Source of the DNA: Oscillospiraceae bacterium
Lineage (GTDB): Bacteria; Bacillota; Clostridia; Oscillospirales; Ruminococcaceae
Direction: 5' to 3'
Length of the DNA: 64,000 bases
Assembly (NCBI GenBank): GCA_051891935.1
Contig: JBJFFR010000183.1
Coordinates: 8,665 to 72,664, forward strand
The position numbers and the translations under genes were made by a program. This document shows, piece by piece, positions 270-52,697 of the stretch; position 1 is the first letter of the stretch, and each line of letters opens with the position of its first letter. Below the pieces are notes generated by a model. It saw only the letters and a list, made by a program, of their open reading frames with translations, was not told the origin of the DNA and made no database searches.

Positions 270-308
270 ATTACGCATTACGCATTACGCATTACGCATT
301 ACGCATTG
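270..308 (-). repeat. Heptad repeat arm: 5 x ATTACGC on + strand, (TAATGCG)n on - strand
   Basis: Five perfect tandem 7-mers at 270-304 plus a partial unit, directly after the ytaF stop (310-312, - strand). Same heptad family as 13551, 15326, 19366, 19547, 34986, 35167 and 39220. Confidence 0.85.
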
Positions 309-3442: not shown

Positions 3443-3468
3443 GGCGGATAGATCTATCCGCCTTTTTT
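3443..3468 (+). terminator. Terminator after mreB
   Basis: ggcggata-gatc-tatccgcc stem followed by TTTTTT. Confidence 0.7.
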
Positions 3469-3494
3469 CGGAATACTCTTATTTTATGGCATAA

Positions 3495-3698
3495 GGGAAC
3501 CTCTAAAAACCTCCTTCTCGGCAAATTTTCTATGACTTATATCATCTGCTGCGTTATCAAAGTAAACGCTGTATAGATTGAATAAATGAAGCGTTTACTT
3601 ACCTTGTAATACATCAAGTATTACTGCGGTTTGATGTCTTGCAGCTGATATAGGTCATATACGAAAATTTGCTCGAGTCCCGGTTTTTAGAGAACCCC
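3495..3698 (+). repeat. Structured palindromic repeat (about 210 bp, MITE-like), copy 1
   Basis: Ends GGGAACCTCTAAAAACC ... GGTTTTTAGAGAACCCC. Homologous copies lie at 36407-36618 (reverse) and 48841-49062. Long internal arms are complementary. It ends 17 nt before the mreC start. Confidence 0.85.
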
Positions 3699-3715
3699 AT
3701 AAGGGAGATGATAAT

Positions 3716-4555
3716 GTGAGGGATTTTTTCAAATCGACAAAATTTAAGATAATTGCGGCGGTCATTGCCGTTCTCATAGGCTTTATGATATACTCCCTTA
3801 CAACGGGCGGATATGCTATAATGGGAGTATCGATTTTTGATGCGATAACGGAGCCCTTTCAGAAGGCTTCGACGTCGATCTCACGCACTGTTTCGGACAC
3901 GATCGACACGCTTGCGAACGCAAAAAAATACCGTGATGAAAACGAGCAGCTTCGTGAGCGTCTTAATCAGCTTTACAATGAGATCATTGACTATGATAAA
4001 ATACAGACGGAAAATTCCGAGCTGAAACAGCTTTTACAGCTCAAAGAGGACAACGAGAGCTTTGTTTTCTCCTCGCCGTGTACGGTGATCGCAAGGACGG
4101 CGAACGACCCTTACGGCTCTTTTACGATCGACAAGGGCAGCAAGGACGGTATCTCGCCGAACGACCCCGTTATCACTTCACAGGGACTTATCGGCATTTG
4201 CTACGATGTTTCGGAGAGCACATCGAGGGTAAGGACTTTGCTTTCTCCGAAATCTGCGGTAGGAGTTACCGTTCTTCGCACAAAGGCAGCAGGTATTCTT
4301 GAAGGCGATTATGAATTCGTTCAGGATGGGCTCTGCAAAATGAGCTATATTGACAAATCGGCTGAAATAATGCTCGGCGATATCATTTTCACATCGGGAA
4401 GCGAGACCTTCCCAGCGGGGCAGCTTGTCGGAACGGTCGAAAAGATCGTTATGGAGGACAGCGGACTTTCCAAATATGCTCTTATCAAGCCTGCATCCGA
4501 TCCTTTTTCTGTCGGAACGGTATTCGTTGTGACGGAATTTGAAGGTAAAAAGTAA
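3716..4555 (+). CDS. mreC: Rod shape-determining protein MreC
   Basis: GTG start with RBS aagggag. N-terminal TM, a coiled-coil (ENEQLRERLNQLYNE...) and a C-terminal beta-domain (GLIGICYDV...RVRTLLSP). Located after mreB. Confidence 0.85.
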   Translation: MRDFFKSTKFKIIAAVIAVLIGFMIYSLTTGGYAIMGVSIFDAITEPFQKASTSISRTVSDTIDTLANAKKYRDENEQLRERLNQLYNEIIDYDKIQTENSELKQLLQLKEDNESFVFSSPCTVIARTANDPYGSFTIDKGSKDGISPNDPVITSQGLIGICYDVSESTSRVRTLLSPKSAVGVTVLRTKAAGILEGDYEFVQDGLCKMSYIDKSAEIMLGDIIFTSGSETFPAGQLVGTVEKIVMEDSGLSKYALIKPASDPFSVGTVFVVTEFEGKK

Positions 4556-9134: not shown

Positions 9135-9377
9135 TGTAAAGGCTATGATAAAGAGAGTAGCGGACATTTTCTCTTCCAAAGAGAGGGCGGACGGTGAAAG
9201 CGCCCGAAGAGCTTGTGCGTGAAGGACACTTTTGAGCCGCTGTATGTAAAAGTCTGACTAAAATACAGCCGTTTCCTGCGTTAAAGGGAGCAAAAGTTCG
9301 GAGATTATCCGATAAAATAGGGTGGCACCACGATCTTACAAGTCGTCCCTTGTTCACAGACAGGGACGGCTTTTATT
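9135..9377 (+). promoter_or_regulatory. T-box riboswitch leader
   Basis: Stem I elements (AGAGAG, GGTGAAAG), conserved T-box sequence AAATAGGGTGGCACCACG (9315-9332) and terminator cgtccct/agggacg plus T-run (9343-9377), directly upstream of an aaRS gene. Confidence 0.85.
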
Positions 9378-10738: not shown

Positions 10739-11247
10739 TCGTGGAATATCCGAGAAGAAAACCGAACAGGCTAAAAGGGTATGATTACAGCGGAAACGGA
10801 ACGTATTTTATTACAATATGCACCCGAGACCGTGAATGTATTTTATCGGATATAAATGTAGGGGACGGGTTTCCCGTCCCGATTCTCACGGATTACGGCA
10901 GAGTATCCGATAGATTTATTAATTTTATCACAGAAAAGTTTCATACTGTATTTGTTGATAAATATGTTATAATGCCAAATCATATCCATCTTCTATTGGT
11001 TGTACAAAATTCGGACATTACCGCAGGCGGGACGGGAAACCCGTCCCCTACAATTGGGAATGTCGTTGGCTGGTTGAAATATCAGATAACCAAACAAATC
11101 AATGATATCCGCGGCATAGCCGGACAAAAAATTTTTCAGCGTTCCTATCACGACCACATTATCAGAAACGAAAAAGATTTTCAGATGATATGGAAATATA
11201 TTGACGAAAACCCTTTGAAATGGGAGAGTGACTGCTTTTATGTGTGA
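10735..11247 (+). CDS. IS200-like Y1 (HUH) transposase domain protein, RayT-like (REP-associated tyrosine transposase type)
   Basis: YDYSGNGTYFITICT, HUH motif in MPNHIHLLLV and C-terminal FQRSYHDHIIRNEKDF...ENPLKW. About 170 aa and single-domain. The TTG/GTG start overlaps the hisS stop. Confidence 0.75.
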   Translation: MIVEYPRRKPNRLKGYDYSGNGTYFITICTRDRECILSDINVGDGFPVPILTDYGRVSDRFINFITEKFHTVFVDKYVIMPNHIHLLLVVQNSDITAGGTGNPSPTIGNVVGWLKYQITKQINDIRGIAGQKIFQRSYHDHIIRNEKDFQMIWKYIDENPLKWESDCFYV

Positions 11248-11734
11248 AGAGATCAATGAAGCCGAAAGGAAGCGAGAAAAGAGATTGCTGCGACAGAAAT
11301 GGTTTGCTGCGATTTTGCTTATACTGGTTTTCGCCGTTCCTGCGGTTGTTATATTTGCCGATTCCTATGCAAGCTGGCATTTCTTTACAAAAAATCGCAT
11401 CAAAGAGCTTGAACAGATATTTTCGGTGACTTTTCCCGAGGACACCGCGTTTGAGCGATACTCCCTTCAGGCAGGTTGTTGCCACACCCTTTATATCACG
11501 GGAATCGCTTCTCCGGAGGATTTCTGCCGTGACTGCATAAATGGCAACATCAAATCTATGACTGATTTCCTTGCACAAAGTGTAGATGAAATACCGATAA
11601 AATCATGGTATGACGGCAGCCGCAGAAAAGCTGATTTTATGTGCAGTTATGATATGCCGAACAGCTACTCTACGACCGATGTATATTTCTTAAAAAACGA
11701 AAACGGCAGTTATGACGTTATATTTATAAAATAA
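11240..11734 (+). CDS. Hypothetical single-pass membrane protein
   Basis: ATG 11240 overlaps the RayT-like stop (ATGTGTGA). Basic N-terminus, one TM (WFAAILLILVFAVPAVVIFA) and a Cys-containing ectodomain. No family recognised. Confidence 0.5.
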   Translation: MCEEINEAERKREKRLLRQKWFAAILLILVFAVPAVVIFADSYASWHFFTKNRIKELEQIFSVTFPEDTAFERYSLQAGCCHTLYITGIASPEDFCRDCINGNIKSMTDFLAQSVDEIPIKSWYDGSRRKADFMCSYDMPNSYSTTDVYFLKNENGSYDVIFIK

Positions 11735-11766
11735 TTATATAAAATATATTGAAAGGAAGTTTTAAT

Positions 11767-13548
11767 ATGGCAGACACAATGGCAGGTCTTCACCGCACAC
11801 ATTACTGCGGCGAGGTCCTTAAAGCAGGAGAAACGGTTACGGTCGGCGGCTACGTTGACACGGTAAGAAACAAGGGCGGTATCATTTTCATGGTCGTTCG
11901 TGACAGAACGGGTATTGTTCAGCTCACCTTCAACGAAACAACGGACAAGGAGATATTTGAAAAGGCTGCGTCCTGCCACTCCGAATATGTTGTTATGGCA
12001 AAGGGTGAAGTCCGTGAGCGTGAGAGCATAAATGACAAGATCGCAACAGGTCATTTTGAGATATTTGTTGACGACCTCCGCATCCTTGCAAAGGCACAGA
12101 CCCCTCCGTTTGAGATCGTTGACGACACAAACACAAACGAGGAGCTTCGTCTTAAATACCGTTACCTTGACCTTCGCCGCAAGAAGCTCCAGGACAACAT
12201 CATAAAGAGAAGCAAGATTGCAAAGGTCGCAAGAGATTACTTTGCGGAGAACGGCTTTATTGAGATCGAAACACCGATGATGATAAAGTCCACTCCCGAG
12301 GGCGCAAGAGATTATCTTGTTCCGTCAAGAGTTCACCCCGGCAAGTTCTATGCTCTTCCGCAGTCACCGCAGATATACAAGCAGCTGCTTATGATCGCAG
12401 GCTTTGACAGATACATTCAGCTTGCTCGCTGCTTCCGTGATGAGGATCTCCGTGCGGACAGACAGCCAGAATTCACACAGATCGACCTTGAAATGTCCTT
12501 TGTTGACACGGAAGACATTATGCAGATGGCTGAAGGCTTTGTAAAGCGTGAATTCTCCGAGGTTCTCGGCATAGACATCCCGACTCCGCTCCCAAGGCTT
12601 ACCTATACAGAAGCTATGAACCGCTACGGTTCGGACAAGCCTGACACACGTTTTGAAATGGAGATCGTTGACATCACCGATACTGTCAAGGACACCGATT
12701 TTGTTGTGTTCAAATCTGCGATCGAAGCAGGCGGTTCGGTTCGTGCTATCACGGCAAAGAACTCCGCTGCAGCGCTTACAAGAAAAGAGATCGACAAGCT
12801 TATCGAACACGCAAAGGGCATTGGAGCAAAGGGTCTTGCTTACATCCGCTGGAATGATGACGCTCCCAACTGCTCGTTCGGTAAATTCCTCAAGGAAGGC
12901 GAGCTTGACGCTATTCTCAAGGCGACAGGAGCAGAAAAGGGCGATGTAGTTCTTATTGCAGCAGACAAGAACAGCTTTGTTCTTCCGCTTCTCGGTGCGC
13001 TTCGTCTTAAAGTTGCAAAGCAGCTTGATATGATCCCCGAGGGCAAGTTCAACTTCCTCTGGATCACAGAATTCCCGTTCTTTGAATGGAACGAAGAAAC
13101 ACAGCACTGGGACGCTATGCACCACCCGTTCACAATGCCGATGGATGAATGCTTACAGTATCTTGACAGCGACCCGAGCAAGGTATTCGCAAAGGCTTAC
13201 GACCTTGTTCTCAACGGCACGGAGCTTTCGAGCGGTTCTATTCGTATCACCGACTATGAGCTTCAGCAGAAGATGTTTGAATCGCTCGGACTTACCGATG
13301 AAGAGATCGAAGCGAAGTTCGGCTTCCTTGTTGACGCATACAAGTACGGTGCAGCTCCTCACGGCGGCATGGGAATCGGTCTTGACAGACTTTCTATGAT
13401 AATGTGCGGCGCAGACAATCTCCGTGACGTACTTGCATTCCCAAAGGTACAGAACGCATCCGAGCTTATGTCCTCCTGCCCTGCAGCAGTAGATAAGGAG
13501 AGCCTTGATATTCTCGGTATCGCTGTTACGGAAAAGGAAGAGGATTGA
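11767..13548 (+). CDS. aspS: Aspartate--tRNA ligase
   Basis: Start MADTMAGLHRTHYCGE (RBS gaaaggaag). Motif 2 FRDEDLRADRQPEFTQID and motif 3 GGMGIGLDRL. About 593 aa. Confidence 0.95.
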   Translation: MADTMAGLHRTHYCGEVLKAGETVTVGGYVDTVRNKGGIIFMVVRDRTGIVQLTFNETTDKEIFEKAASCHSEYVVMAKGEVRERESINDKIATGHFEIFVDDLRILAKAQTPPFEIVDDTNTNEELRLKYRYLDLRRKKLQDNIIKRSKIAKVARDYFAENGFIEIETPMMIKSTPEGARDYLVPSRVHPGKFYALPQSPQIYKQLLMIAGFDRYIQLARCFRDEDLRADRQPEFTQIDLEMSFVDTEDIMQMAEGFVKREFSEVLGIDIPTPLPRLTYTEAMNRYGSDKPDTRFEMEIVDITDTVKDTDFVVFKSAIEAGGSVRAITAKNSAAALTRKEIDKLIEHAKGIGAKGLAYIRWNDDAPNCSFGKFLKEGELDAILKATGAEKGDVVLIAADKNSFVLPLLGALRLKVAKQLDMIPEGKFNFLWITEFPFFEWNEETQHWDAMHHPFTMPMDECLQYLDSDPSKVFAKAYDLVLNGTELSSGSIRITDYELQQKMFESLGLTDEEIEAKFGFLVDAYKYGAAPHGGMGIGLDRLSMIMCGADNLRDVLAFPKVQNASELMSSCPAAVDKESLDILGIAVTEKEED

Positions 13549-13550
13549 TC

Positions 13551-13595
13551 TAATGCGTAATGCACTGCGAAGCTGGGCATCGTAATTGCGTAATT
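13551..13595 (+). repeat. Left inverted-repeat arm of the 13551-15377 island (heptad family)
   Basis: taatgcgtaatgcactgcgaagctgggcatcgtaattgcgtaatt. Its reverse complement recurs at 15326-15377 with one extra heptad. Confidence 0.9.
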
Positions 13596-13632
13596 ATTTT
13601 CAGCCGAAAGCATTTTTTCAATATACAAAACA

Positions 13633-13670
13633 CGCCGTTCACGGTTTTATTGATCGTGAACGGCGATTTT
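13633..13670 (+). terminator. Terminator hairpin after aspS (left copy of a 43-bp direct repeat)
   Basis: cgccgttcacg / cgtgaacggcg, an 11-bp stem. The 43-nt block 13623-13665 is repeated exactly at 15258-15300. Confidence 0.7.
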
Positions 13671-13689
13671 AATAAATCGGATAAAACAA

Positions 13690-13718
13690 TTGACAAAAGC
13701 CTATGTAACTGATAAAAT
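13690..13718 (+). promoter_or_regulatory. Promoter of small-ORF transcript, copy 1
   Basis: TTGACA (13690-13695), 17-bp spacer, TAAAAT (13713-13718). Confidence 0.6.
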
Positions 13719-13782
13719 AATGGTATGGGCATACCTAAACGGTAGGCGGTCAATCTTTGCTCCCTGAAAGGGGGGCGTTGCT

Positions 13783-13869
13783 ATGGGCGTTCTTGAAGTT
13801 TTAACTCTCGGACTACTTATTTGCGCTGTAATACAGCTAATGCAAAATAGCAATAACAAAAAGAAATAA
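13783..13869 (+). CDS. 28-aa hydrophobic peptide, candidate type I toxin, copy 1
   Basis: MGVLEVLTLGLLICAVIQLMQNSNNKKK. SD run GGGGGG lies 7 nt upstream and can pair with GCTCCC (13759-13764). The ORF is below the ORF-track size cutoff and is identical in copy 2. Confidence 0.55.
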   Translation: MGVLEVLTLGLLICAVIQLMQNSNNKKK

Positions 13870-13948
13870 CCGCCCCAGCTTCGAAATGCGGCGGTTAATC
13901 TTTCGCTTAAAGTTTCGGGAGCGACCGTCTATCGGTATTGCTCTCTTT
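13858..13948 (-). ncRNA. Predicted antisense RNA (candidate antitoxin), copy 1; ends approximate
   Basis: Starts about 7 nt downstream of the - strand promoter at 13955-13983. Runs through hairpin AACCGCC/GGCGGTT (13868-13896) into a T-rich tract (ttatttctttttgtt on the - strand) that overlaps the last codons of the small ORF. Confidence 0.45.
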
Positions 13949-13954
13949 ATAGTT

Positions 13955-13983
13955 ATTATAATCGCTTTTAACTGATATGTCAA
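13955..13983 (-). promoter_or_regulatory. Convergent consensus promoter, copy 1
   Basis: On the - strand: TTGACA (13983-13978), 17-bp spacer, TATAAT (13960-13955). Confidence 0.65.
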
Positions 13984-14033
13984 GATAAAAATCCTCTTTT
14001 TCAACGGCGATTTTAATAAATCGGATAAAACAA

Positions 14034-14062
14034 TTGACAAAAGCCTATGTAACTGATAAAAT
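14034..14062 (+). promoter_or_regulatory. Promoter of small-ORF transcript, copy 2
   Basis: Same TTGACA-17-TAAAAT arrangement, 344 bp downstream of copy 1. Confidence 0.6.
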
Positions 14063-14126
14063 AATGGTATGGGCATACCTAAACGGTAGGCGGTCAATCT
14101 TTGCTCCCTGAAAGGGGGGCGTTGCT

Positions 14127-14213
14127 ATGGGCGTTCTTGAAGTTTTAACTCTCGGACTACTTATTTGCGCTGTAATACAGCTAATGCAAAATAGCAATAA
14201 CAAAAAGAAATAA
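14127..14213 (+). CDS. 28-aa hydrophobic peptide, candidate type I toxin, copy 2
   Basis: Nucleotide-identical to 13783-13869, with the same RBS and 5' UTR hairpin. Confidence 0.55.
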   Translation: MGVLEVLTLGLLICAVIQLMQNSNNKKK

Positions 14214-14289
14214 CCGCCCCAGCTTCCAACTCGGCGGTTATTCTTACACCTAAAATTTGGGAGCGACCGTCTATCGGTATGCCCTCTTT
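14202..14289 (-). ncRNA. Predicted antisense RNA (candidate antitoxin), copy 2; ends approximate
   Basis: Downstream of the - strand promoter at 14296-14324. Hairpin stem AACCGCC/GGCGGTT is conserved (14212-14239), while the loop and body have diverged from copy 1. Confidence 0.45.
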
Positions 14290-14295
14290 ATATTT

Positions 14296-14324
14296 ATTAT
14301 AATCGCTTTTAACCGATATGTCAA
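14296..14324 (-). promoter_or_regulatory. Convergent consensus promoter, copy 2
   Basis: On the - strand: TTGACA (14324-14319), 17-bp spacer, TATAAT (14301-14296). Confidence 0.65.
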
Positions 14325-14468
14325 GAGAAAAAATTTCTTTTTCATTCAATCAACCGTCAGTTGATTTTTTAGGAAGGAATTAAACTGACATTCGTTTGAC
14401 ATTTTGGGTTTTTATATGCTAAAATAAAGTCAACAAAAGCTTTTGATTTTTAAAAAAGGAATGAAAAT

Positions 14469-15251
14469 ATGAATATCAGCATAGGTGAAAATATCAAAAC
14501 TCTTCGCAAAAAAATGGATGTCGGTCAGGACGTGCTTGCGAACGCTGTCAGCGTTTCCGTTCAGGCAGTTTCAAAATGGGAAACGGGACAATCGCTGCCC
14601 GATGTTGGAATAATCCCCGATATCGCAGCGTTCTTCGGAGTGAGTATTGACAGTCTTTTCTTCGGAGAAGCCGCAGACTGTACAAAATCGGACAGGCTTT
14701 CTCTTCCCGATGATGACAAGCTCTATATTGTTCAGGTTCGTAACGGCGAAATTCTTGACAGAGAAAAATGGGACAGAAATTCACACATAAAGCTCGCCGT
14801 TGAGGATTTCAAGGGTACGCTCCACGCCGAGATATGGGGCAGTGCGGACATAAAGGGAGATGTTGGAGGAAATGTGAATGCCGGTGACGGTGTTGCCTGT
14901 CAGAATGTAGGCGGAGATGTAAATTCAGGCAGCAGTACAGCTTGTCAGAACGTCAGCGGAGATATAAATTGCGGCGACAGTGTAAACTGCGGAAATGTCG
15001 GCGGTGGAATAAATTGCGGCGACAGTATAAACTGTGGGAATGTTGGTGGAGAAATAAACGCAGGCGACAGTGTGAACTGCGGAAATGTCAGCGGTTCGGT
15101 AAGTGCAAACAACCGTATCCGCTGCGGAAATATTTTCGATTGTCAAAAGATATCCTGTGAAACGCTCTATGCCGAGGGCAGTATAGAATGTGGTTCGATC
15201 GAATGCGGCGGAGATATCCACACAGGGGAAAAAATAAATGGGGTGAACTGA
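14469..15251 (+). CDS. XRE-family HTH protein with C-terminal Gly/Asn/Cys-rich 15-residue repeats (possible beta-helix, bactofilin-like)
   Basis: N-terminal HTH_3-like (IKTLRKKMDVGQDVLANAVSVSVQAVSKWETGQSLPD). Residues 133-222 form six 15-aa repeats (GGDVNSGSSTACQNV / SGDINCGDSVNCGNV ...). Confidence 0.7.
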   Translation: MNISIGENIKTLRKKMDVGQDVLANAVSVSVQAVSKWETGQSLPDVGIIPDIAAFFGVSIDSLFFGEAADCTKSDRLSLPDDDKLYIVQVRNGEILDREKWDRNSHIKLAVEDFKGTLHAEIWGSADIKGDVGGNVNAGDGVACQNVGGDVNSGSSTACQNVSGDINCGDSVNCGNVGGGINCGDSINCGNVGGEINAGDSVNCGNVSGSVSANNRIRCGNIFDCQKISCETLYAEGSIECGSIECGGDIHTGEKINGVN

Positions 15252-15267
15252 GATTTTATACAAAACA

Positions 15268-15311
15268 CGCCGTTCACGGTTTTATTGATCGTGAACGGCG
15301 TGTTCGTTTTT
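15268..15311 (+). terminator. Terminator hairpin (right copy of the 43-bp direct repeat)
   Basis: Same cgccgttcacg / cgtgaacggcg stem, followed by tgttcgttttt. Confidence 0.7.
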
Positions 15312-15325
15312 ATTATTATCAAATC

Positions 15326-15377
15326 AATTACGCAATTACGATGCCCAGCTTCGCAGTGCATTACGAATTACGCATTA
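15326..15377 (-). repeat. Right inverted-repeat arm of the island (heptad family)
   Basis: aattacgcaattacgatgcccagcttcgcagtgcattacgaattacgcatta is the reverse complement of 13551-13595 plus one extra heptad. It contains the ppk1 stop codon. Confidence 0.9.
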
Positions 15378-19365: not shown

Positions 19366-19579
19366 TAATGCGTAATGCGTAATTCGTAATGCGTAATTAT
19401 TTGCTGCGCTGTTCATTTACGTTTTAATCTGTAGGGGACTGATGTCCTGAAAAATAAAAGTGCGGTCACGATTTGTAAGTACATTTCGTGACCGCACCTT
19501 TTTCTATGCACTTTAATCAGCGTATCTCTAACAGATAAGCGAAGCTAATTACGCATTAAGCATTACGAATTACGCATTA
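19366..19579 (+). mobile_element. 214-bp heptad-armed element (MITE-like), copy A
   Basis: Left arm TAATGCG TAATGCG TAATTCG TAATGCG TAATTA (19366-19399) and inverted right arm (19547-19579). Central hairpin gtgcggtcacga/tcgtgaccgcac (19460-19498) with flanking A- and T-runs. Homologous to 34986-35199 in reverse. Confidence 0.8.
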
Positions 19580-28790: not shown

Positions 28791-28917
28791 ATATTATTCC
28801 TTATTTCGTTCCTACATTATAGCACACTTATTTATATTTTTCCACATTATACAAAAACTGTAATCTAATTTTAAACATTTCAACAAAAAGCGCTTTTTTG
28901 TTACCGTTTTGCAATAA

Positions 28918-29084
28918 TTAATACTAATAACCATTTGTTCTATGGATAAAGACGGTGGATAGAATACGACCAATCAAGGAAAACGACCGCAGGCAGGCTG
29001 CCGCCTGTCAAGGGAGTTTGACGCAGAGTGGGCGTATTATAGCCGCCGTATTTTATCCATAGGTTAAATGGTTATTAGTATAAA
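28918..29084. repeat. 167-bp imperfect palindrome in a divergent intergenic region
   Basis: Arms of about 51 nt, ttaatactaataaccatttgttctatggataaagacgg... versus ...ccgtattttatccataggttaaatggttattagtataaa, about 80 percent complementary. Confidence 0.7.
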
Positions 29085-29154
29085 TCCCTTGAAAAAATCT
29101 AAGGTTGTTTTAAGGTATGTTAATTATACTTTAATTCAAAGTAAACAGTAAAGG

Positions 29155-34985: not shown

Positions 34986-35199
34986 AAAATTAATTTAATG
35001 CTTAATTCGTAATGCGTAATGCGTAATTAGCTTCGCTTATCTGTCAGAGGTGCACTGTTTAAAGCTTATTGAAATAAAAACTAAAGGTGCTGTCACGAAA
35101 ATCAAAATCGTGACAGCACCTTTGTTTATCCCACAAATTATATCGTAAATGAACAGCGCAACAAATAATTACGCATTACGCATTACGAATTATGCATTA
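34986..35199 (-). mobile_element. 214-bp heptad-armed element, copy B (reverse orientation relative to copy A)
   Basis: Arms at 34986-35019 and 35167-35199. Central hairpin aaaggtgctgtcacga/tcgtgacagcaccttt (35083-35123). Subterminal blocks gcttcgcttatctgt and cgtaaatgaacagcgcaacaaat match copy A. Confidence 0.8.
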
Positions 35200-36375
35200 T
35201 TGCAGGCTTTCTATCGGCATAACGGGGTCAACATCGGCGTCGTAGTCTATGCCGTCTACATCAAAGCCGAAAAGCTCGGAAAAGTCGTGCTGATAGCCTG
35301 CGATATCTGCGCAGCTGTTGATATTTTCCGTGGAGATCTCATCCCAGAGCTTTGATACCTTTTCCTGGATATCGGGGAGCATTTCAAGATCGTCCATGCG
35401 GATCCTGTTCTCGTCATCGGTCGGAACGGGCTTGCCGCTGTAAAGCTTCTGTGCGAAGAGTCGCTGCATCTGCTCGATACAGCCTTCGTGGTTTCCCGAT
35501 TCCTTCATTACCTTAAAGAGGATAGAGATATAGAGCGGAACTATCGGGATAGCGGAGCTTGACTGTGTAACGAGAGCCTTGTTTACGGAAACATAAGCCT
35601 TCACGCTTGTAACGTTGTTGATCATTCCTGCTGTTGCGGCGAGGTGAGCCTTCGCCCTGCCGATAGAGCCGTCGTAATACATCGGATGTGTAAGCTCGGG
35701 TCCGATATAGGAGTAAGCGATCGTCATTGCGTCATCGGTAAGCACCTGTTCACGCTCCATCTGCTGTATCCAGTCGAACCAGTCTTCGCCGCCCATTACC
35801 TTAACGGTGTTGTCGATCTCTTCTTCTGTCGCAGGGTCAAGAGTGATATCGGAAACGGTCATATTTCGCATATCAATTGTCTTGTTGGTGTAGCTGCTCG
35901 AGGTCGTCTTGAGCACGGAGGAAACTGTTGTACCGTCTGCGAGCGTTCTTCTCGGAGCGGCAAGACTGTAGACAACGAGGTCGACTTTGCCGAGGTCTTT
36001 CTTGATAAGGGCGATAACTTCATCCTTGACAGCCTGTGAGAAAGCATCGCCGTTTATCGTCTTGGCATAAAGCCCCTCTTCGTGAGCAAAATGTTCAAAA
36101 GCGGCGGTGTTGTACCAGCCTGCGGAGCCTGTTTTGCTTTCTGTGCCGGGCTTGTCAAAGATAACGCCGATAGTTGCGGCATGGCAGGAAAATGCAGCGG
36201 AGATCCTTGAAGCAAGTCCGTAGCCCATTGACGAGCCGATAACGAGCACCTTCTTTGCGCCTTCGACGGCAGGCTGCGACTTTACATAGTCGATCTGTGC
36301 CTTTACTGCGGCTTTGCAGCCTTCGGGATGTGCGGTTGTGCATATAAATCCTCTTATTTTAGGTTTTACTATCAT
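35197..36375 (-). CDS. fabV: Trans-2-enoyl-CoA/ACP reductase (FabV/Ter family)
   Basis: MIVKPKIRGFICTTAHPEGC N-terminus. Length 392 aa. The stop TAA is the first TAA of the repeat arm. Confidence 0.9.
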   Translation of the reverse strand: MIVKPKIRGFICTTAHPEGCKAAVKAQIDYVKSQPAVEGAKKVLVIGSSMGYGLASRISAAFSCHAATIGVIFDKPGTESKTGSAGWYNTAAFEHFAHEEGLYAKTINGDAFSQAVKDEVIALIKKDLGKVDLVVYSLAAPRRTLADGTTVSSVLKTTSSSYTNKTIDMRNMTVSDITLDPATEEEIDNTVKVMGGEDWFDWIQQMEREQVLTDDAMTIAYSYIGPELTHPMYYDGSIGRAKAHLAATAGMINNVTSVKAYVSVNKALVTQSSSAIPIVPLYISILFKVMKESGNHEGCIEQMQRLFAQKLYSGKPVPTDDENRIRMDDLEMLPDIQEKVSKLWDEISTENINSCADIAGYQHDFSELFGFDVDGIDYDADVDPVMPIESLQ

Positions 36376-36406
36376 AAAAGTTCTCCTTTACGGTCAGATT
36401 ATAAAA

Positions 36407-36618
36407 GGGGTTCTCTAAAAACCGAGACTAAGCAATACTTCGTATTGCTCGCAAATTTTCGTCAGTGACTTTGCACAGCTTCAAGGCAACAAACCGCAGT
36501 AAATACTAAAGAAACGCTGATAGATCAGCTTATTCTTGATGTATTGCAAGGTTTGTTAACGCAGAAGATGGGCAAAGTCATAGAAAATTTGCCGAGAAGG
36601 AGGTTTTTAGAGGTTCCC
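36407..36618 (-). repeat. Structured palindromic repeat, copy 2
   Basis: The reverse complement aligns end to end with 3495-3698 and 48841-49062. It lies 31 nt upstream of the fabV start. Confidence 0.85.
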
Positions 36619-38959: not shown

Positions 38960-39229
38960 ATGATAAAAGGTGTAAACAGACGTATTGTTGAGATAAGCGG
39001 AATGAAGAACGATTATTTTGAAAAGGCTGTGCTTTATATCCGACCCGAAAAAAGCGCGGAACCGCTCGGCAGGCTGGAGCTTGAAGCGAGAAGCACGGTC
39101 GCAATGCTTTCGCCGAAAGAGGAAAAGCCTCCGAAGGCACATATCATAGCCGATCTTACGCTGCGTTTGCTGGCAGTGTCGCTGGGTTTGTTTTCGATAG
39201 CGTTGACGGTATATCTTTTTAATGCGTAA
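38960..39229 (+). CDS. Hypothetical small protein with C-terminal TM
   Basis: 89 aa, MIKGVNRRIVEISGMKNDYFEKAVLYIRPEK...LTLRLLAVSLGLFSIALTVYLF. The stop codon lies inside the heptad arm at 39220. Confidence 0.5.
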   Translation: MIKGVNRRIVEISGMKNDYFEKAVLYIRPEKSAEPLGRLELEARSTVAMLSPKEEKPPKAHIIADLTLRLLAVSLGLFSIALTVYLFNA

Positions 39230-39313
39230 TTCGTAATGCGTAATTATTTGTTGCGCTGTTAATTTATGATATTTTTTTCCCGAAAAGACTAATTGTTTTT
39301 TCGGGATTTTTTG
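39220..39313 (+). repeat. Half heptad element (left arm and subterminal block) plus terminator
   Basis: TAATGCG TAATTCG TAATGCG TAATTA, then atttgttgcgctgtt (as in copies A and B), then hairpin cccgaaaa/ttttcggg and a T-run. No right arm. Confidence 0.75.
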
Positions 39314-47378: not shown

Positions 47379-48817
47379 AATACATCAATTCCCGTATAGT
47401 AATATTTCAAGATCTGGTCGTATGTATAGCCTGTCTTTGCAAGGTAATTTGCGCCGTTCTGGCTCATTCCGACGCCGTGCCCCCAGCCATAGGTCGTGAA
47501 GATGAAATATCCGTCCGAATAGGAAATGTCAAAGCTTGCGCTTTTAAGACTGTATGAAAGAACGTTTTCACGGAGTTTGCGTCCCGTGATGGTCATCTGT
47601 CCGTCGACATCAACGGTCGAAACGTAGTTGCCGTCAATATGTCCGGTGACGGTCAGCCAGTTTTCAGGGTTCTCGGAAAGGGTGATGCCGAGGTAGCGTT
47701 CAAGAGCGGAACGTATCTCGCTTTCGGAGAACTTTGTCTTTTTGCCATAGTTCGGGTCGCCCTCTGCGTCAAAAGGACAAGCAACGCTGACAAGGTAGGG
47801 GATGCTTCCGCCCCATACGTTCACGGAAGAAGCCGTATAGCCCGAGGAAGAAGCCATATAAACGGTCTGTGCGACCTTTCCGTTATAGTAGCAGCATTTT
47901 CCCCATACGGAGGAAACAAGGTCAACGATACGCTGCGGAGGATTGCTTTTTACAAGTACGGAAGGTGTAAGTCCGTTGACGTTGTGATACTTGACATAAG
48001 AATAAGCTGCGACAGCCTGTGCCTTTATAGCTTCATCGCTGAACGAAGAGGATATCTCGTTGTTGACTATCCTGCAGACAAGGTCGAATGCATCATCCGT
48101 ATGTACAGTGCCGCCGTATTTTGCGGTGAAGATCTCGCTGCCTGTTGAGGAAACAGGCGGAGCTTCCGTGACTACTTCGGTGGTGATAAAGGTCGGAGTC
48201 GTTTCGATCGGAGCGTCAATGGTCACGATAACATCGGCAACGGAAACTGACGGGATATCTGCAAGGCTCTCGGACGGAGCTGTCACGATTTCGTCATCAT
48301 CTTCCTCGGGAAGATCATCGTCAATGATAAGTGTATCGTCCTCGTCCTCATCCGGATAATCATCCTGCTGATCTTCCATAAGATCGTCTTCGGGGTTGTC
48401 CTCCGTGTCGATCTGGGAGAGGTTTTTCTCCTGCTTGTTATCATCGGCGAAAACCTCGTTGTGGGAAGCGGTGTTTTTGTTTTCGTTTGTTTCCTTATCA
48501 AGCTCTTCGGCATGGCCGGAGGGAAGGCTTACAGGGATCTCGCTGTCATCGTCATCGGTAAGATCCGGAGGAACTGTTGTAACTGCTTCACGCTTTGTAA
48601 CGATATCGGAATAATCCATTCCCGCATATTCCGATACTGCCGCGGAGGTAGCTTCTCCAATGTCTTCTCCCGTATCGGCGTCTGTTTCGGTCGAATAGTA
48701 GAAGTCCATTGAGATCGGTTCTTCATCGACATCTTCCACAAGGCAGAATGCAAAGGTATAAAACCCTGCGACCAGCAGCAGAGAAGCGATGCCGCTCAAA
48801 ACTGTACTTTTTTTCAT
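47375..48817 (-). CDS. SpoIID/LytB-domain protein with long acidic N-terminal linker
   Basis: Signal/TM, an Asp/Glu-rich region of about 200 aa, then a SpoIID core (AIKAQAVAAYSY..., GWGHGVGMSQNGANYLA). A 4-nt overlap with pdp. Confidence 0.8.
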   Translation of the reverse strand: MKKSTVLSGIASLLLVAGFYTFAFCLVEDVDEEPISMDFYYSTETDADTGEDIGEATSAAVSEYAGMDYSDIVTKREAVTTVPPDLTDDDDSEIPVSLPSGHAEELDKETNENKNTASHNEVFADDNKQEKNLSQIDTEDNPEDDLMEDQQDDYPDEDEDDTLIIDDDLPEEDDDEIVTAPSESLADIPSVSVADVIVTIDAPIETTPTFITTEVVTEAPPVSSTGSEIFTAKYGGTVHTDDAFDLVCRIVNNEISSSFSDEAIKAQAVAAYSYVKYHNVNGLTPSVLVKSNPPQRIVDLVSSVWGKCCYYNGKVAQTVYMASSSGYTASSVNVWGGSIPYLVSVACPFDAEGDPNYGKKTKFSESEIRSALERYLGITLSENPENWLTVTGHIDGNYVSTVDVDGQMTITGRKLRENVLSYSLKSASFDISYSDGYFIFTTYGWGHGVGMSQNGANYLAKTGYTYDQILKYYYTGIDVL

Positions 48818-48840
48818 AATGATTTCCTTTCAGTTCTTAC

Positions 48841-49062
48841 GGGAACCTCTAAAAACCTCCTTCACGGCAAATCCCCTATGAATTTTGTCATCTGCTGCGA
48901 TATCAAAGTAAACGCTGATTAGATTGAATAAATGAAGCGTTTACTTACCTTGAAATACATCAAGTATTCACTGCGGTTTGATGCCTTGCAGCTGACAAAA
49001 TTCATAACGAGGCTTTGCGAGCAATACGAAGTATTGCTTTGTCTCGGTTTTTAGAGAACCCC
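48841..49062 (+). repeat. Structured palindromic repeat, copy 3
   Basis: GGGAACCTCTAAAAACC...GGTTTTTAGAGAACCCC. Fills the gap between the sortase stop (49063) and the spoIID-like start (48817). Confidence 0.85.
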
Positions 49063-50109
49063 TTATTCTATATATGAACCGCCGTTGAATTTATAGTAAA
49101 TAGCAGGCCACTTGGGGTTCTGATTCACATAAAATCCTGTTGTATCTATATTTTCGGTGGTTTCACCGGGGCGCAGACGTCTTGCAATAACTACATGACG
49201 CGCTTCGTCCCATTCGTATGCGCAGGTAGAAAGGGTAAGATATTTATCGTTTTCATCAAAATCAATTCCTGTGATGAACTGGCTGCGTGTGGTTATTTCC
49301 TTCTTGTAATTCTCAAAGGTATAAGCGCCGCTGTCACGGAAATTGATAAAATTGATGTAATCGAACACGTTTCCGTCATCATGCTCGGGGAGAGTATTGA
49401 CAACAAAGGAAGAAATTATAACATAGGTATAGTTCTCATAGTAATTGTCGAAGTAGATGAACGGGTTTTGTAACCAGTATTTGAGATCCCATTTATAATA
49501 GTCAAGGTTTCCGAACATTGAGCCGTCACGGTTGTTATGACCATAGAGGATGATGTTACTGCTCTGCTTGTCGGAATAATCGTTTATGACGTTGGAAGGA
49601 TCTGCAAAGACGGTTCCGACCGAGCGCACCTGATCGTAGAAATTGTGATTTAGGTAATAGCTTTTGTCACGCTGAACGATCGGCTCGCCGAGGACATCGG
49701 GAATAGAGATATATCCTACATAATCGGGATTGATCGCAAGCATTTCTTCTGCGGCTTCAGAGCGGACGAGCGGAGGACGTTCCTCTTCGGGGATATCATC
49801 GGAATTCTCGGGAGGAAGCGTAACAGTTTCGTTTCCAATGCCTTGGGAGTTCCCGGCGGCGTTGTTGTAGATGACATTGAGCTTATCGTTGTTCTGCTTT
49901 GCTTCAAACTGGTGGTAGAAATAAATTATAAGCACAATTATGCAGACAACAAGAACCAGAAGTGCAAAAAGAGAGAATACTTTGCTTGCTATTTCCTGAA
50001 CCGAGTCGCCTCTGTGGGGAATAAATGCTTCAGAAAAGCTTTTTTTCTTCTTCTTTTTTTCTTGTTCATTAGAGTGTCGGGAATGATAAACTTCATCGGC
50101 AAGTGCCAT
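49063..50109 (-). CDS. Class B sortase paralog 4
   Basis: N-terminal TM. SrtB-like core with His (ILYGHNNRDGSMFGNL), Cys (LTLSTCAYE) and Arg (VVIARRL). Confidence 0.8.
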   Translation of the reverse strand: MALADEVYHSRHSNEQEKKKKKKSFSEAFIPHRGDSVQEIASKVFSLFALLVLVVCIIVLIIYFYHQFEAKQNNDKLNVIYNNAAGNSQGIGNETVTLPPENSDDIPEEERPPLVRSEAAEEMLAINPDYVGYISIPDVLGEPIVQRDKSYYLNHNFYDQVRSVGTVFADPSNVINDYSDKQSSNIILYGHNNRDGSMFGNLDYYKWDLKYWLQNPFIYFDNYYENYTYVIISSFVVNTLPEHDDGNVFDYINFINFRDSGAYTFENYKKEITTRSQFITGIDFDENDKYLTLSTCAYEWDEARHVVIARRLRPGETTENIDTTGFYVNQNPKWPAIYYKFNGGSYIE

Positions 50110-52697
50110 TATGTATAAACTCCTTTAACTGATCCTGCAGTAACGGTCGTGGTTTCCTCTTCTTCCGTTTCGGGGACGTTTGTGACAGTCGTTTCCTCCG
50201 TATCGGAGGTTTCTGCAGTAGTTTCTTTAGTTGTTGTTTTTTTCTTTTTCGTTGTTGTGGTTTCTTCCTCGGAAGTATCTTTAGTCGTTGTTTTTTTCTT
50301 TTTGGTCGTTGTGGTTTCTTCCTCGGAAGTTTCTTTAGTTGTTGTTTTTTTCTTTTTTGTCGTTGTAGTTTCTTCTTCGGAAGTTTCTTCTACAGTAGTT
50401 TCTGTTGTATTCTTCGATTTTTTCTTTGTTGTTTCCTCGGTGGTTTCCTCTGTAGTTTCGGCGGTCGTTTTCTTCTTTTTGGAAGTGGTTTCTTCGTTAT
50501 CGCCGTCTTCATCGGAAGCATCGGGAGGAACGGTCGTTTCGTCAGAATTATCGGAACTTTCCGAATCAGCATTTTCCTCATCGGAAGTATCGGTCTGTTT
50601 TTTCTTCTTCTTTTTCTTCTTGGTGGTGGTTTCGTCGTCCTCGTCGGAGTTCTCCTCATCGGGGACTGTTGTTTCTTCTTCCGTTGTTGTTATTCCGGAC
50701 ATTATAGCTGTCCAGTCAACTCCTCTTGCATAAGGGTTGAACGATGCAGAGGTGAAGTCATAGTCGGAAACGCTCTCTCCGTCGCGAAGCTTTCGTGCAA
50801 AAACTACGAAGCGTGAGTTGGAGAACTCGTTCGAGCAGGTCGAGAGGAGAAGAAGCTTATCGCCGTATTCGGCTTTGACGGGGGAAATTATCTGATTGCG
50901 CGACTGGATTTCGCCCATATACCAATCAAAGGTGGCTTCGTCATTAAGCACTTCGATATAATCTTGATAATGGAAAACTACGCCGTTGGAATCCTGCTTT
51001 TCAAGTGCGTTCGTTACGAAATAGGCATAGATAAGGTATGTGCCCGTTTCATACTCGGTTCGGAGCGTAATGGTCGGGTTTGCAGCATAAAAGTCAAGAT
51101 CCTGCTTATAGTTTCTGAGGTTGCCGAACATGGTGCCGTCTTCCTGGTTATGACCGTAGAGGACAATATTCGGGGAAACATGATCCTCACTGATGGTACA
51201 GCGGTAATCCATAAAGATCGCACCGCCCTTGTTCTGCTCGTCATAGTATGTATGAGTAAGATAGTAGGTATTTGTCGTGTCCTCGGGATCATGGACAACG
51301 GGCTGGTAGATATCGCAGCCCTCAAGCTCGATAAATCCGACTACCTTATCGCTTATACCTTTATAATAGGACATGATGTCGATGTTATGCTGCTGCTCCT
51401 CCTCTTCGGTCGGTGCAATAGTTATAACGTTTCCATCGCTGTCGATAGTTGTCTTTGCTGTTGTGGTAACAACTTCCTTTATTGCTTCAAGATCCTTTAC
51501 GGCTCTTTTCGACTGGATAAGCGTACTTGCAAGCATAACGCCTGCGCCGATAAAGATCACGACCGCAATGATGAACACAATCTTTCGTATCATCTCAAAA
51601 ACGGAGTCGCCTTTCCACGGGAAAATCTCTTTAAGGATGTTTTTCTTTTCCTTTTTTTCGGCGTCCTCTTTGGCTTCGTTCTCGGTCAGAACGATAGGTG
51701 CGGGTTCAAACGGAGGAATGTCGTTTGTATTTTCTTCTGTCGTTTCTTCGGAAGCATTGTTTTCCTCATCGGAAGGGATCTCGCTGATTTCGTCTTTCTC
51801 CTCGGACGCTTCGGGTTCATCGTCATCGAAGATCTCTTCAACGTCATCGGAGCTTTCGGTGTTTTCGCCGTATTCTTCGGGATCGCTCTCGTCCTCTTCG
51901 ATCTCTTCACTTTCAATATCGGAGATCGCATCGTTAACGGCTTCTTCAATGTCTGCGGAGCCATCGGGCAGGATGTCGTTCCAGTCGGGGATATCGGCGG
52001 AAAGAACTTCGACCGTGTCTTCCTGCTTATCTTCGGTTTCGGCGATATCGTCAAGTCCGTTTGTGAACACACTTGAAAAAGTGCTTTCAGCGGTTTCCTG
52101 TTCGCTTGTGCCGCTGAAGCTTTCCGCAGGGATAACTCCGTCAAGCACTGCTGACGGCTTCACGATCTCGGGTTCAGAGGGTTCGTTTATTTCCTCTTCG
52201 GATATATCATCAATAATATTACTGTCTGTAATATTATTTTCGGGGTTTTCATTGGTATCGGGGGATGCTTCGTCCTGTTTGATCTCATCGGTTTCGGTTG
52301 AAGCACCCTCGGGAGCTGTTTCCGTATATTCTTCTGCTGTCGATACGGTTTCAGGCTCGTCTGACTTGTCCTGTGTTTCGGCATTGTCGGAGGCTTCGGT
52401 TTTTTCGGTAACGGATGTTTCCTCATCGGCGGTGCTGCTTTCGTCCGCTTCGGTCTGCTGTTCGGCAGGTTCCAAAGCTTCGGCAGGTTCCGTGGGTTCG
52501 GAAATTTCCTCGGGGGGAGCAGGCTTTGCATGGCGAGGTACATACTCCCCGTCTGCGGAAAGCTCCTCGGAGAATTCCGCGTCAAATTCTTCTGTTATAT
52601 CATCCTGTGCGTCCTGCACTTCGGGCGGTTCGGCTTTTTTCTTGTCGAATTCCGCAATTATATCATCGACTGTGAAGCCGAATTTGTTATCTGGCAT
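50109..52697 (-). CDS. Class B sortase paralog 3 with about 360-aa acidic N-terminal and about 190-aa Thr/Glu/Lys-repeat C-terminal extensions
   Basis: Central TM plus a sortase core (IVLYGHNQEDGTMFGNL, LLLSTCSNEFSNSRFVVFARKL). Stop/start overlap (TAATG) with paralog 4. Confidence 0.75.
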   Translation of the reverse strand: MPDNKFGFTVDDIIAEFDKKKAEPPEVQDAQDDITEEFDAEFSEELSADGEYVPRHAKPAPPEEISEPTEPAEALEPAEQQTEADESSTADEETSVTEKTEASDNAETQDKSDEPETVSTAEEYTETAPEGASTETDEIKQDEASPDTNENPENNITDSNIIDDISEEEINEPSEPEIVKPSAVLDGVIPAESFSGTSEQETAESTFSSVFTNGLDDIAETEDKQEDTVEVLSADIPDWNDILPDGSADIEEAVNDAISDIESEEIEEDESDPEEYGENTESSDDVEEIFDDDEPEASEEKDEISEIPSDEENNASEETTEENTNDIPPFEPAPIVLTENEAKEDAEKKEKKNILKEIFPWKGDSVFEMIRKIVFIIAVVIFIGAGVMLASTLIQSKRAVKDLEAIKEVVTTTAKTTIDSDGNVITIAPTEEEEQQHNIDIMSYYKGISDKVVGFIELEGCDIYQPVVHDPEDTTNTYYLTHTYYDEQNKGGAIFMDYRCTISEDHVSPNIVLYGHNQEDGTMFGNLRNYKQDLDFYAANPTITLRTEYETGTYLIYAYFVTNALEKQDSNGVVFHYQDYIEVLNDEATFDWYMGEIQSRNQIISPVKAEYGDKLLLLSTCSNEFSNSRFVVFARKLRDGESVSDYDFTSASFNPYARGVDWTAIMSGITTTEEETTVPDEENSDEDDETTTKKKKKKKKQTDTSDEENADSESSDNSDETTVPPDASDEDGDNEETTSKKKKTTAETTEETTEETTKKKSKNTTETTVEETSEEETTTTKKKKTTTKETSEEETTTTKKKKTTTKDTSEEETTTTKKKKTTTKETTAETSDTEETTVTNVPETEEEETTTVTAGSVKGVYT
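50226..50387 (-). repeat. 3 x 54-bp in-frame tandem repeat (ETSEEETTTTKKKKTTTK)
   Basis: Three consecutive 18-codon units in the C-terminal tail of the 862-aa sortase. Further poly-Lys and poly-Thr runs are nearby. Confidence 0.8.

Follow-up and report, generated by a model that had tools for sequence, protein, structure and literature searches.

The stretch of DNA analysed here, 64,000 nt from a gut Oscillospiraceae bacterium (the window), contains at positions 19366-19579 an intergenic element bounded by inverted tandem arrays of the heptad TAATGCG. On balance, we take this element, here named element A, to be one copy of a non-coding, duplicative, palindromic intergenic cassette which resembles miniature inverted-repeat transposable elements (MITEs) and REPINs, has simple-repeat arms of the family unit KAATKCG (TAATGCG in the window, GAATTCG as a sister unit) and would act as a natural omega interposon. 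This reading builds on the anatomy of the cassette, the use of its stop codons by genes, covariation in its hairpin, its restriction to one lineage, arm alleles shared between loci, and the instability and inversion seen at the arms. Element B, at 34996-35199, is treated together with element A; end-1 and end-2 denote two different subterminal segments between the arms and the centre of both elements, and L-numbers denote comparison loci from other genomes or contigs.

Allowing at most one mismatch, the double heptad TAATGCGTAATGCG has 17 matches in the 64 kb, against 0.02 expected from shuffled sequences. The window holds eight heptad arrays at unrelated sites, namely 270-308 (minus strand), 13551 (plus), 15377 (minus), 19366 (plus), 19579 (minus), 34996 (plus), 35199 (minus) and 39220 (plus), for which Tandem Repeats Finder reports a period of 7, 3.6-5.4 copies and 84-100% matches. 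Being head-to-tail 7-nt units of strain-variable number, they belong to the heptanucleotide class of long simple-sequence repeats (SSRs). Outside the arrays TAATGCG occurs once (3.3 expected) and CGCATTA not at all (2.2 expected). Since single heptads are not enriched, the signal resides in the arrays, and a dispersed word of the DNA-uptake or Chi type is ruled out. As can be read directly from the sequence, (TAATGCG)n carries TAA in all three frames, whereas (CGCATTA)n is free of stops. The location of the arrays and this difference between the strands are both as the original prediction had described them.

Elements A and B are reverse-complement copies, at unrelated loci, of one cassette of approximately 210 bp (204-214 bp) in which two arms enclose the end-1 and end-2 segments, and these in turn a central hairpin that has an A-run on one side and a T-run on the other. 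The arms constitute terminal inverted repeats whose complementarity over 34 nt is 91% in A and 97% in B, approximately 150 nt separate those of element A, and neither element contains an open reading frame (ORF). The left arm of element A (19366-19397, plus strand) consists of TAATGCG, TAATGCG, TAATTCG, TAATGCG and a final TAAT (4.6 units) and is preceded by TGAAGTA in heptad register. Its right arm (19548-19579, minus strand) reads TAATGCG, TAATTCG, TAATGCT, TAATGCG and TAAT (4.6 units), and the spacer on its dpaB side, TAACGCG CTTTATC, represents two decayed heptads. The end-1 segment (19398-19459, plus strand) begins with TATTTGCTGCGCTGTTCATTTACG, contains a small hairpin (GGGAC..GTCC) and the A-run AAAAATAAAA, is 89% complementary to 35130-35200 and is shared with 39245-39277. 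The end-2 segment (19498-19547, plus strand) ends in CTCTAACAGATAAGCGAAGCTA, holds the motif GCGAAGC and is 85% complementary to 34990-35074. In element B the arm beside end-2 lies at 34996-35027 (plus strand) and the arm beside end-1 at 35168-35199 (minus strand). The segments adjoining the arms, TATTTGYTGCGCTGTTCATTTACG and TAGCTTCGCTTATCTGTYAGAG, are 89% and 85% identical between A and B; as these two differ while the arms are symmetric, the element is asymmetric inside symmetric arms. The GCGAAGC motif occurs in end-2 of both elements and also inside unrelated viral elements (L028).

A third, partial copy at 39220-39277 (plus strand) comprises an arm of 3.6 units (39220-39244) and the first subterminal segment, end-1, alone, followed by a different, separate terminator at approximately 39279-39313. 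The array at 270-308 (minus strand, 5.4 units of TAATGCG) is a solo arm, the inner side of which abuts a different palindromic element (approximately 155-262), and the arms at 13551 and 15377 form a subtype with a common 19-nt insert and adjoin copies of yet another terminator hairpin. Arms are thus found with several different interiors or alone, and the arm behaves as a module of its own. The palindromic element at approximately 155-262 has the ends CGCTGATTAA...TTAATCAGCG, and a related copy at approximately 11160-11280 of L140 fills part of the spacer between the SPFH gene and dpaB in that relative.

The central hairpin of element A (19460-19497, both strands) has a 12-bp stem, GTGCGGTCACGA-loop-TCGTGACCGCAC, with AAAAATAAAA before it and CTTTTTC after it on the plus strand and TTTTATTTTT after it on the minus strand. 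It is GC-rich and followed by a U-run on both strands, as the sequence definition of a bidirectional intrinsic terminator demands; a simple terminator scan missed it because its loop exceeds 8 nt. The counterpart in element B, AAAGGTGCTGTCACGA..TCGTGACAGCACCTTT, occupies 35083-35123 (both strands). At stem position 5 the pair is G:C in A, T:A in B and A:T in the copy of a relative, L122, which amounts to compensatory change across three copies. Folded as RNA, each whole element gives one long hairpin (-88.6 kcal/mol, z = -9.5 for A; -91.1 kcal/mol, z = -12.2 for B). The original prediction saw a bidirectional terminator here; the A- and T-runs on both sides and the covariation fit that proposal, and the hairpin is accordingly best called a putative terminator that would stop transcription in vivo.

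The stops carried by the arms are used by genes. As had been claimed, seven of the eight arms in the window face the 3' end of a gene with their stop-bearing strand, at the stop codon or no more than 11 nt from it; the genes are an MntP-like gene (ytaF), aspS, ppk1, an SPFH gene, dpaB, fabV and an 89-aa ORF at 38960-39229. The distance from stop to arm is 1 nt for the MntP-like gene, 2 nt for aspS, 4 nt for the SPFH gene and 11 nt for dpaB, and in the three remaining cases a TAA of the array is itself the stop codon: that of the first heptad in fabV (35199-35197), the second in the 89-aa ORF and the third in ppk1. The last residues of the ppk1 product, IMRNS, are encoded by the array. The 89-aa ORF ends in YLFNA, compared with YLIGI or YLIGV in relatives, hence the arm has replaced the last three native codons. 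For fabV, relatives that lack heptads have their TAA at the same codon, so that the arm starts exactly at the native stop. The nearest relative found, the Oscillospiraceae metagenome-assembled genome (MAG) L122 with 96.9% identity over 8 kb, adds dpaB to these cases: 14 nt are absent there, which makes the first heptad TAA the stop of dpaB. The one exception is, as was also noted at the outset, the left arm of element B (34996), which faces the promoter and 5' region of a gene starting at or below 34944, upstream of a HEPN gene. The assignments of the MntP-like, aspS, ppk1, SPFH, DpaB flavoprotein and HEPN genes come from Pfam.

These features suggest how such a cassette might be tolerated. 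With inverted arms, a ribosome arriving from either flank would read (TAATGCG)n and, within 21 nt, meet a TAA whichever frame it is in. A cassette that inserted at a stop codon, eroded into it or cost the gene its last few codons would then do no harm, as the array would become the stop of the gene, and the GC-rich hairpin in the centre would end transcription from both convergent genes. Bringing its own stop and terminator, as an omega interposon does, the cassette would be tolerated in the places that it does occupy, the very 3' ends of genes and particularly the gaps between convergent ones, and would persist there because insertion is neutral. The arms, for their part, would be hypermutable and recombinogenic, slipping in 7-nt steps, gaining small inserts and flipping or exchanging the DNA they enclose, which would explain why they occur with different interiors, with cargo, or alone.

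The comparison with relatives bears on the last point. A search of genome contigs for the end-1 junction pattern returned one genuine match, L122, and two chance matches, and metagenome and viral contigs yielded chance matches alone. L122 carries element A at the same site, with a left arm of 2.6 units (4.6 in the window) and without two heptads (14 nt) on the dpaB side. Over the 8 kb compared, five of the nine indel events fall inside the elements, and all three shared arms differ, by changes in unit number and indels of 14 and 19 nt; mismatches amount to 5.7% in element A versus 2.4% overall. The fabV arm is polymorphic for presence among relatives. At 95-97% FabV identity (L129, L147, L148) arms are present at both gene ends and their interiors differ, whereas at 89% and 79% (L130-L133) heptads are absent and an ordinary terminator follows the same fabV stop. 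Gene order also changes at these sites, and beyond fabV a 125-nt interior segment is inverted between L129 (7878-8002) and L148 (2382-2506) while the flanking genes are collinear. No arrays were found in approximately 130 kb in total of L130, L132 and L138-L144. The graded FabV series, the missing arrays and the indels and inversion indicate a family that is recent, confined to one lineage and structurally unstable. L129 has a different 19-nt insert, TGTATGCAATGCTCTGCAT, in its right arm.

Heptamers are the commonest class of long SSRs in bacteria, and the arrays could in principle have arisen and grown where they are through polymerase slippage, with no connection to a mobile unit. The variation in unit number and the 7- or 14-nt indels between near-identical genomes are what slippage would produce, and over-representation of heptamers has been reported (PMC4692102; PMC4679880; both citing Mrazek 2007). 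Slippage does not explain, however, why one heptad is arrayed at eight unrelated sites in 64 kb and none elsewhere, nor can it alone seed inverted arm pairs with shared non-repeat subterminal sequence. In addition, arm alleles with the same order of variant units recur across loci and species: the left-arm 32-mer of element A is identical to 3491-3522 of L134, an arm after spoIID at another locus of a different species, and the ppk1 arm of L122 agrees with the right arm of element A at 33 of 33 positions. Identical alleles at separate loci mean that local slippage is insufficient and that the arms spread as units; purely local growth is therefore very improbable.

Related arms built of the sister unit show that stops are not the whole matter. 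In L134-L137 an SPFH gene and a convergent fumarase gene are each met flush at the TAA by (GAATTCG)n arms, which are stop-free in every frame and flank a 960-bp palindromic repeat. The arms of L147 and L148 mix GAATTCG and TAATGCG units, and by their unit sequence the two kinds of arm are one family, KAATKCG. The SpoIID frame of L134 runs for 11 codons into a stop-free array before a TAG provided by a mutated unit, while SpoIID in the window ends in SKYY followed by a plain terminator. As stop-free arms sit equally flush against stop codons, the stops are used and yet are not what places or maintains the arms. The palindromic repeats belong to a family of approximately 800-960 bp whose inverted ends are long (GCGAAGCC..CAGCTGGTCGAGCTGAGCACAGCT..) and in which GGCGCAATTCAC motifs recur, seen in L134 at 10996-11954 and 3523-4290 and in L130 at 11183-11412 (after fabV); the repeat of L134 is absent from the window.

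The original prediction offered two readings, a portable insulator or a MITE selected for gene ends. A MITE-like family whose stops are used is indeed what was found; the stops as cause of the placement did not survive the stop-free arms, and no host need for an insulator emerged, because relatives without the element have plain terminators at the same positions. Insulation selected by the host, in which three-frame stops and a bidirectional terminator would protect convergent genes against read-through translation and antisense transcription, would account for the flush placement at seven of eight gene ends in the window, for the compensatory changes that keep the hairpin intact and for the retention of element A at its site in L122. 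The unrelated heptad AAAATAG around a cyanobacterial cassette, which has inward-facing stops as well, also points this way. The same explanation has to accommodate the GAATTCG arms in equivalent positions, relatives that manage with plain terminators, an element A that evolves faster than its surroundings, and half elements and solo arms without the terminator part, and we consider it unlikely. The persistence of the cassette is probably for the most part neutral or selfish and not selected by the host.

Arrays of this kind extend beyond the Oscillospiraceae. A scan of viral contigs with TAATKCGTAATKCGTAAT gave at least 120 loci, and the array statistics that follow cover the matches listed, to which the window is added where 206 arrays are counted. 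An open frame of at least 60 codons on the same strand ends at 124 of the 206 arrays, compared with 28 of 206 random positions. In 76 of the 206 the stop is a heptad TAA (offsets -3, -10 and -17 in 32, 25 and 17 cases), which bears out the claim that the inward three-frame stops are put to use, and stops just upstream of arrays often stand in heptad register as well, at +4 and +11. TAATGCN arrays show a clear strand bias (42/59 on the same strand versus 7/59 on the opposite one) and TAATTCG arrays a weaker one (62/121 versus 48/121). Inverted arm pairs enclose from 9 nt to several hundred nt. The idea that an array followed by a hairpin is a universal module found no support, the 80 nt downstream of viral arrays folding no better than random segments. 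Distant viral arm pairs enclose ordinary phage genes, and neither a transposase nor other recurrent cargo was found between them, four-helix-bundle cassettes excepted.

Such cassettes came to light through cyanobacteria. Blastn with element A found no match in phage records, and among plasmids cyanobacterial records alone, via the arm. On these plasmids inverted (TAATTCG)4 arms exactly bracket a gene for a 118-132-aa four-helix-bundle protein of the TIGR02436 family, related to 23S rRNA intervening-sequence (IVS) proteins and Avd, in varied genomic contexts. Inverted heptad arms surround a four-helix-bundle gene in the same manner in three viral contigs, and a fourth homologue (L093, 4080-4600) has inverted (AAAATAG)n arms with inward-facing stops. 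The TAATTCG-armed cassettes are those of L145 (1500-2022), L146 (1503-1926), L149, L150 and L110; in L145 the upstream gene ends within the cassette arm. Arrays in the stop-free orientation are translated as heptapeptide repeats in predicted proteins of L145 (ORF 536-1495) and L057 (..ITNYELRITNYEL.., ..NDELRITNERQAE..).

In 23S rRNA, the stems of IVS are cut by RNase III. By analogy, once the whole cassette is transcribed, the arms of element A might pair into a duplex of approximately 30 bp from which RNase III would excise the cassette at the RNA level, and the ORF-less Oscillospiraceae elements might derive from cassettes that encode four-helix-bundle (IVS/Avd-like) proteins. The arms do pair into a long perfect stem, and the exact bracketing of TIGR02436 genes in different contexts on plasmids and viral contigs agrees with the proposed origin. 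Against this, a profile hidden Markov model built from six cassette proteins found no four-helix-bundle gene in approximately 260 kb of Oscillospiraceae loci (1507 ORFs), NCBIfam found no match among the small ORFs of the window, and a working internal terminator would halt transcription before the second arm was made. As arm similarity is the sole link to the cyanobacterial cassettes and RNase III cleavage is hypothetical here, the proposal, taken with its derivation, is distinctly improbable.

A broader and still rather unlikely reading would unite all heptad-armed cassettes into a cross-phylum class of mobile "gene punctuation" elements. The class would share stop-bearing 7-nt arrays as arms, built of KAATKCG in Oscillospiraceae, in cyanobacteria and in numerous phage-like contigs, and of AAAATAG in one further case from cyanobacteria. 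Its coding forms would carry an Avd/23S-IVS-like four-helix-bundle protein, and the Oscillospiraceae elements would be ORF-less miniatures. Insertion would be kept silent by inward three-frame stops together with an RNase III-cleavable duplex excising the cassette from read-through RNA, and the arms would drive inversion and exchange of the enclosed DNA.

Proteins that recognise sequences with 7-nt periodicity are known: omega/ParB-type ribbon-helix-helix proteins bind heptads, and HutP reads triplets 7 nt apart. The arrays might similarly be bound by a protein, as DNA by one of the former kind or as RNA by a HutP-like one, and their gene-end position would then reflect regulation in the 3' untranslated region (UTR) or of the nucleoid. 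The core AATKCG stays the same in Oscillospiraceae, on cyanobacterial plasmids and in numerous viral contigs, and the sequence of the unit is kept despite slippage, both of which speak for binding. On the other hand, the arrays have no candidate binder associated with them, heptads on their own show no enrichment, close strains differ freely in the number and sequence of their units, and the other orientation is translated as NYELRIT-type peptide repeats inside genes, suggesting passive spread. We therefore hold protein-binding arrays to be quite unlikely.

The preferred interpretation, a MITE-like cassette with simple-repeat arms, is favoured by its terminal inverted repeats and by small, non-coding, dispersed copies with a conserved interior (A, B, the partial copy at 39220 and the L122 orthologue, with 64 kb sampled), in keeping with what had been predicted, and also by the presence of the fabV arm in some relatives and its absence from others. 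Several observations weigh against it. A target-site duplication is not definable, as the ends read TA...TA from the heptad itself. Among the relatives compared, no filled site could be matched cleanly to an empty one with its synteny intact; relatives with the same SPFH-dpaB gene order (L138-L141) carry other palindromic inserts at that place, so that none of them offers a clean empty site. No transposase, RAYT (REP-associated tyrosine transposase, REP being repetitive extragenic palindromic sequence) or other mobility gene, and no cognate autonomous element with the same ends, was found in the window, in approximately 260 kb of related DNA or in the viral loci. The flush position of the stop-free GAATTCG arms implies that something beyond tolerance through stops also drives placement, for which target choice at TAA, loss of the spacer by deletion, or a function are candidates. 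Furthermore, the terminator role of the central hairpin is a predicted one, and the copies were counted in approximately 64 kb of the source genome, with 8 kb from the nearest relative. The cassette presumably spread by transposition; recombination or template switching between arrays is a less favoured but possible process, which would fit both the L129/L148 inversion and the identical insert in the 13551 and 15377 arms. In L138, the terminator hairpin of the SPFH-dpaB spacer is duplicated and inverted around an insert of approximately 270 nt.

The two arms with the common insert deserve a description of their own. The aspS arm (13551-13597, plus strand) has its 19-nt insert, ACTGCGAAGCTGGGCATCG, at 13564-13582 and is followed by a terminator hairpin at 13633-13665; the ppk1 arm (15321-15377, minus strand) has the identical insert at 15339-15357 and a hairpin at 15264-15304. 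The insert is absent from the orthologous ppk1 arm of L122, and its single match in viral contigs, within a LuxR-type gene, was dismissed as chance. The 19-nt inserts in arms are reminiscent of very small mobile repeats within cyanobacterial heptamer arrays, which Elhai reportedly described in 2008. Being inverted, the aspS and ppk1 arms enclose a block of 1.8 kb (13551-15377), inside which 1.63 kb lie between two direct copies of one 44-nt terminator hairpin (13622-13665 and 15253-15296). Within these 1.63 kb are an XRE-type helix-turn-helix gene with repeats of 45 nt inside it (14469-15251), a perfect 227-nt duplication (13659-13885 and 14003-14229) and several near-consensus promoter-like sites on both strands. 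The block looks like a heptad-armed unit with cargo, or like an insertion into such a unit.

Other features of the window include a dispersed intergenic repeat family of approximately 70-160 nt (79-91% identity, both orientations) at 3463-3672, 36405-36618 and 48809-49064, situated upstream of or between genes, e.g., fabV-glgB, and unrelated to the heptad elements. A T-box leader at 9136-9353 (Rfam RF00230, 117.7 bits) precedes an ORF starting at 9350. Two further inverted-repeat pairs were noted, one at 10854-10881 and 11028-11055 (28-nt arms, 96% complementary, 146 nt apart, containing GGGACGGGTTTCCCGTCCC), the other at 28917-28950 and 29052-29085 (34-nt arms, 88% complementary, 101 nt apart). 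At 50157-50485 a 54-nt tandem repeat (3-5 copies, 92% matches) with 12-nt sub-repeats lies within the minus-strand ORF 50109-52697 and is probably a repetitive, low-complexity region of the protein.

If the interpretation as a tolerated mobile cassette holds, element A would be a natural counterpart of the engineered omega interposon, able to land on a gene end harmlessly. Part of the coding end of housekeeping genes can come from a repeat element, which supplies the last three to five residues and the stop in ppk1 and the small ORF, and the stops of fabV and dpaB. It would also give heptanucleotide simple repeats, long over-represented without explanation, a structural role as the inverted ends of cassettes. 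The arms stand out as sites, at the junctions of convergent genes, where indels, inversion and changes in gene content concentrate; they matter for the annotation of gene ends and, since contigs tend to break at them, for the assembly of gut MAGs. That four-helix-bundle cassettes in cyanobacteria have arms of the same design points to a wider class.

Searches for a known equivalent were made in databases and literature. As the original prediction had advised, the elements were compared with Rfam, where no family matches them: at gathering score the whole window gave nothing but the T-box, and element A with an E-value threshold gave sub-threshold, miRNA-type noise only. No description was found in the literature searched for the double heptad, TAATTCG doublets or MITEs with three-frame stops, nor of heptad arrays as the paired ends of a stop-supplying terminator cassette, nor of heptad-armed four-helix-bundle cassettes.

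The cassette is a real feature, unusual and yet a variant of known bacterial intergenic repeats. Correia/nemis elements of Neisseria, ERIC, RUP and BOX are short, non-coding, dispersed repeats with terminal inverted repeats, often located at gene ends and co-transcribed. The long hairpins of nemis are substrates of RNase III, and such MITEs can carry terminator or promoter activity. The cassette resembles them in being short, non-coding and dispersed and in its terminal inverted repeats and long hairpins, and differs in that its ends are variable-number 7-nt arrays, with no sequence similarity, demonstrated TA duplication or known parent insertion sequence. With REP sequences, bacterial interspersed mosaic elements (BIMEs) and REPINs (PMC3116915) it shares extragenic palindromic repeats, inverted pairs, a position in 3' UTRs near stop codons and spread within a lineage. 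A REP unit, however, is an imperfect palindrome of 20-40 nt with a conserved head and a link to RAYT, whereas the heptad arms are direct tandem repeats that are not self-complementary and no RAYT-like ORF was found; the original prediction had not recognised the heptad as a described REP/BIME family either. Correia/nemis, REP/BIME and REPIN are best seen as no more than the nearest functional analogues.

Heptanucleotide repeats are themselves a recognised over-represented class (PMC4692102; PMC4679880 citing Mrazek 2007). TAACTGA repeats are known from Beggiatoaceae, cyanobacteria and Bacteroidetes, and their forward orientation has stops in all frames, which limits overlap with coding ends (PMC4679880); the all-frame-stop heptamer is therefore not new as a property. 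GGGAATC/GGGGAYT repeats occur in Xanthomonas and Nostoc, and in Xanthomonas GGGAATC arrays are sometimes inverted pairs between convergent genes (PMC4692102). Similarly to these and to the cyanobacterial short tandemly repeated repetitive (STRR) heptamers, the arrays of the window are tandem 7-nt repeats, intergenic, sporadic among lineages and variable in number between close strains. TAACTGA, in contrast, lies mostly just upstream of start codons and nearly always in direct repeats, and for none of these heptamers is there a description of arrays that pair as the inverted ends of a cassette, with conserved subterminal sequence inside and a terminator in the centre, or that provide housekeeping genes with their stop codons. 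The 23S rRNA IVS (S23p, TIGR02436, PF05635; related to Avd of diversity-generating retroelements) likewise have inverted repeats that pair into a stem, and differ from the window elements, which have no ORF. The omega interposon is an engineered cassette whose inverted ends provide transcription terminators together with three-frame stops. It is man-made, and the likeness is a functional analogy only, in that symmetric ends would halt translation and transcription from either side.

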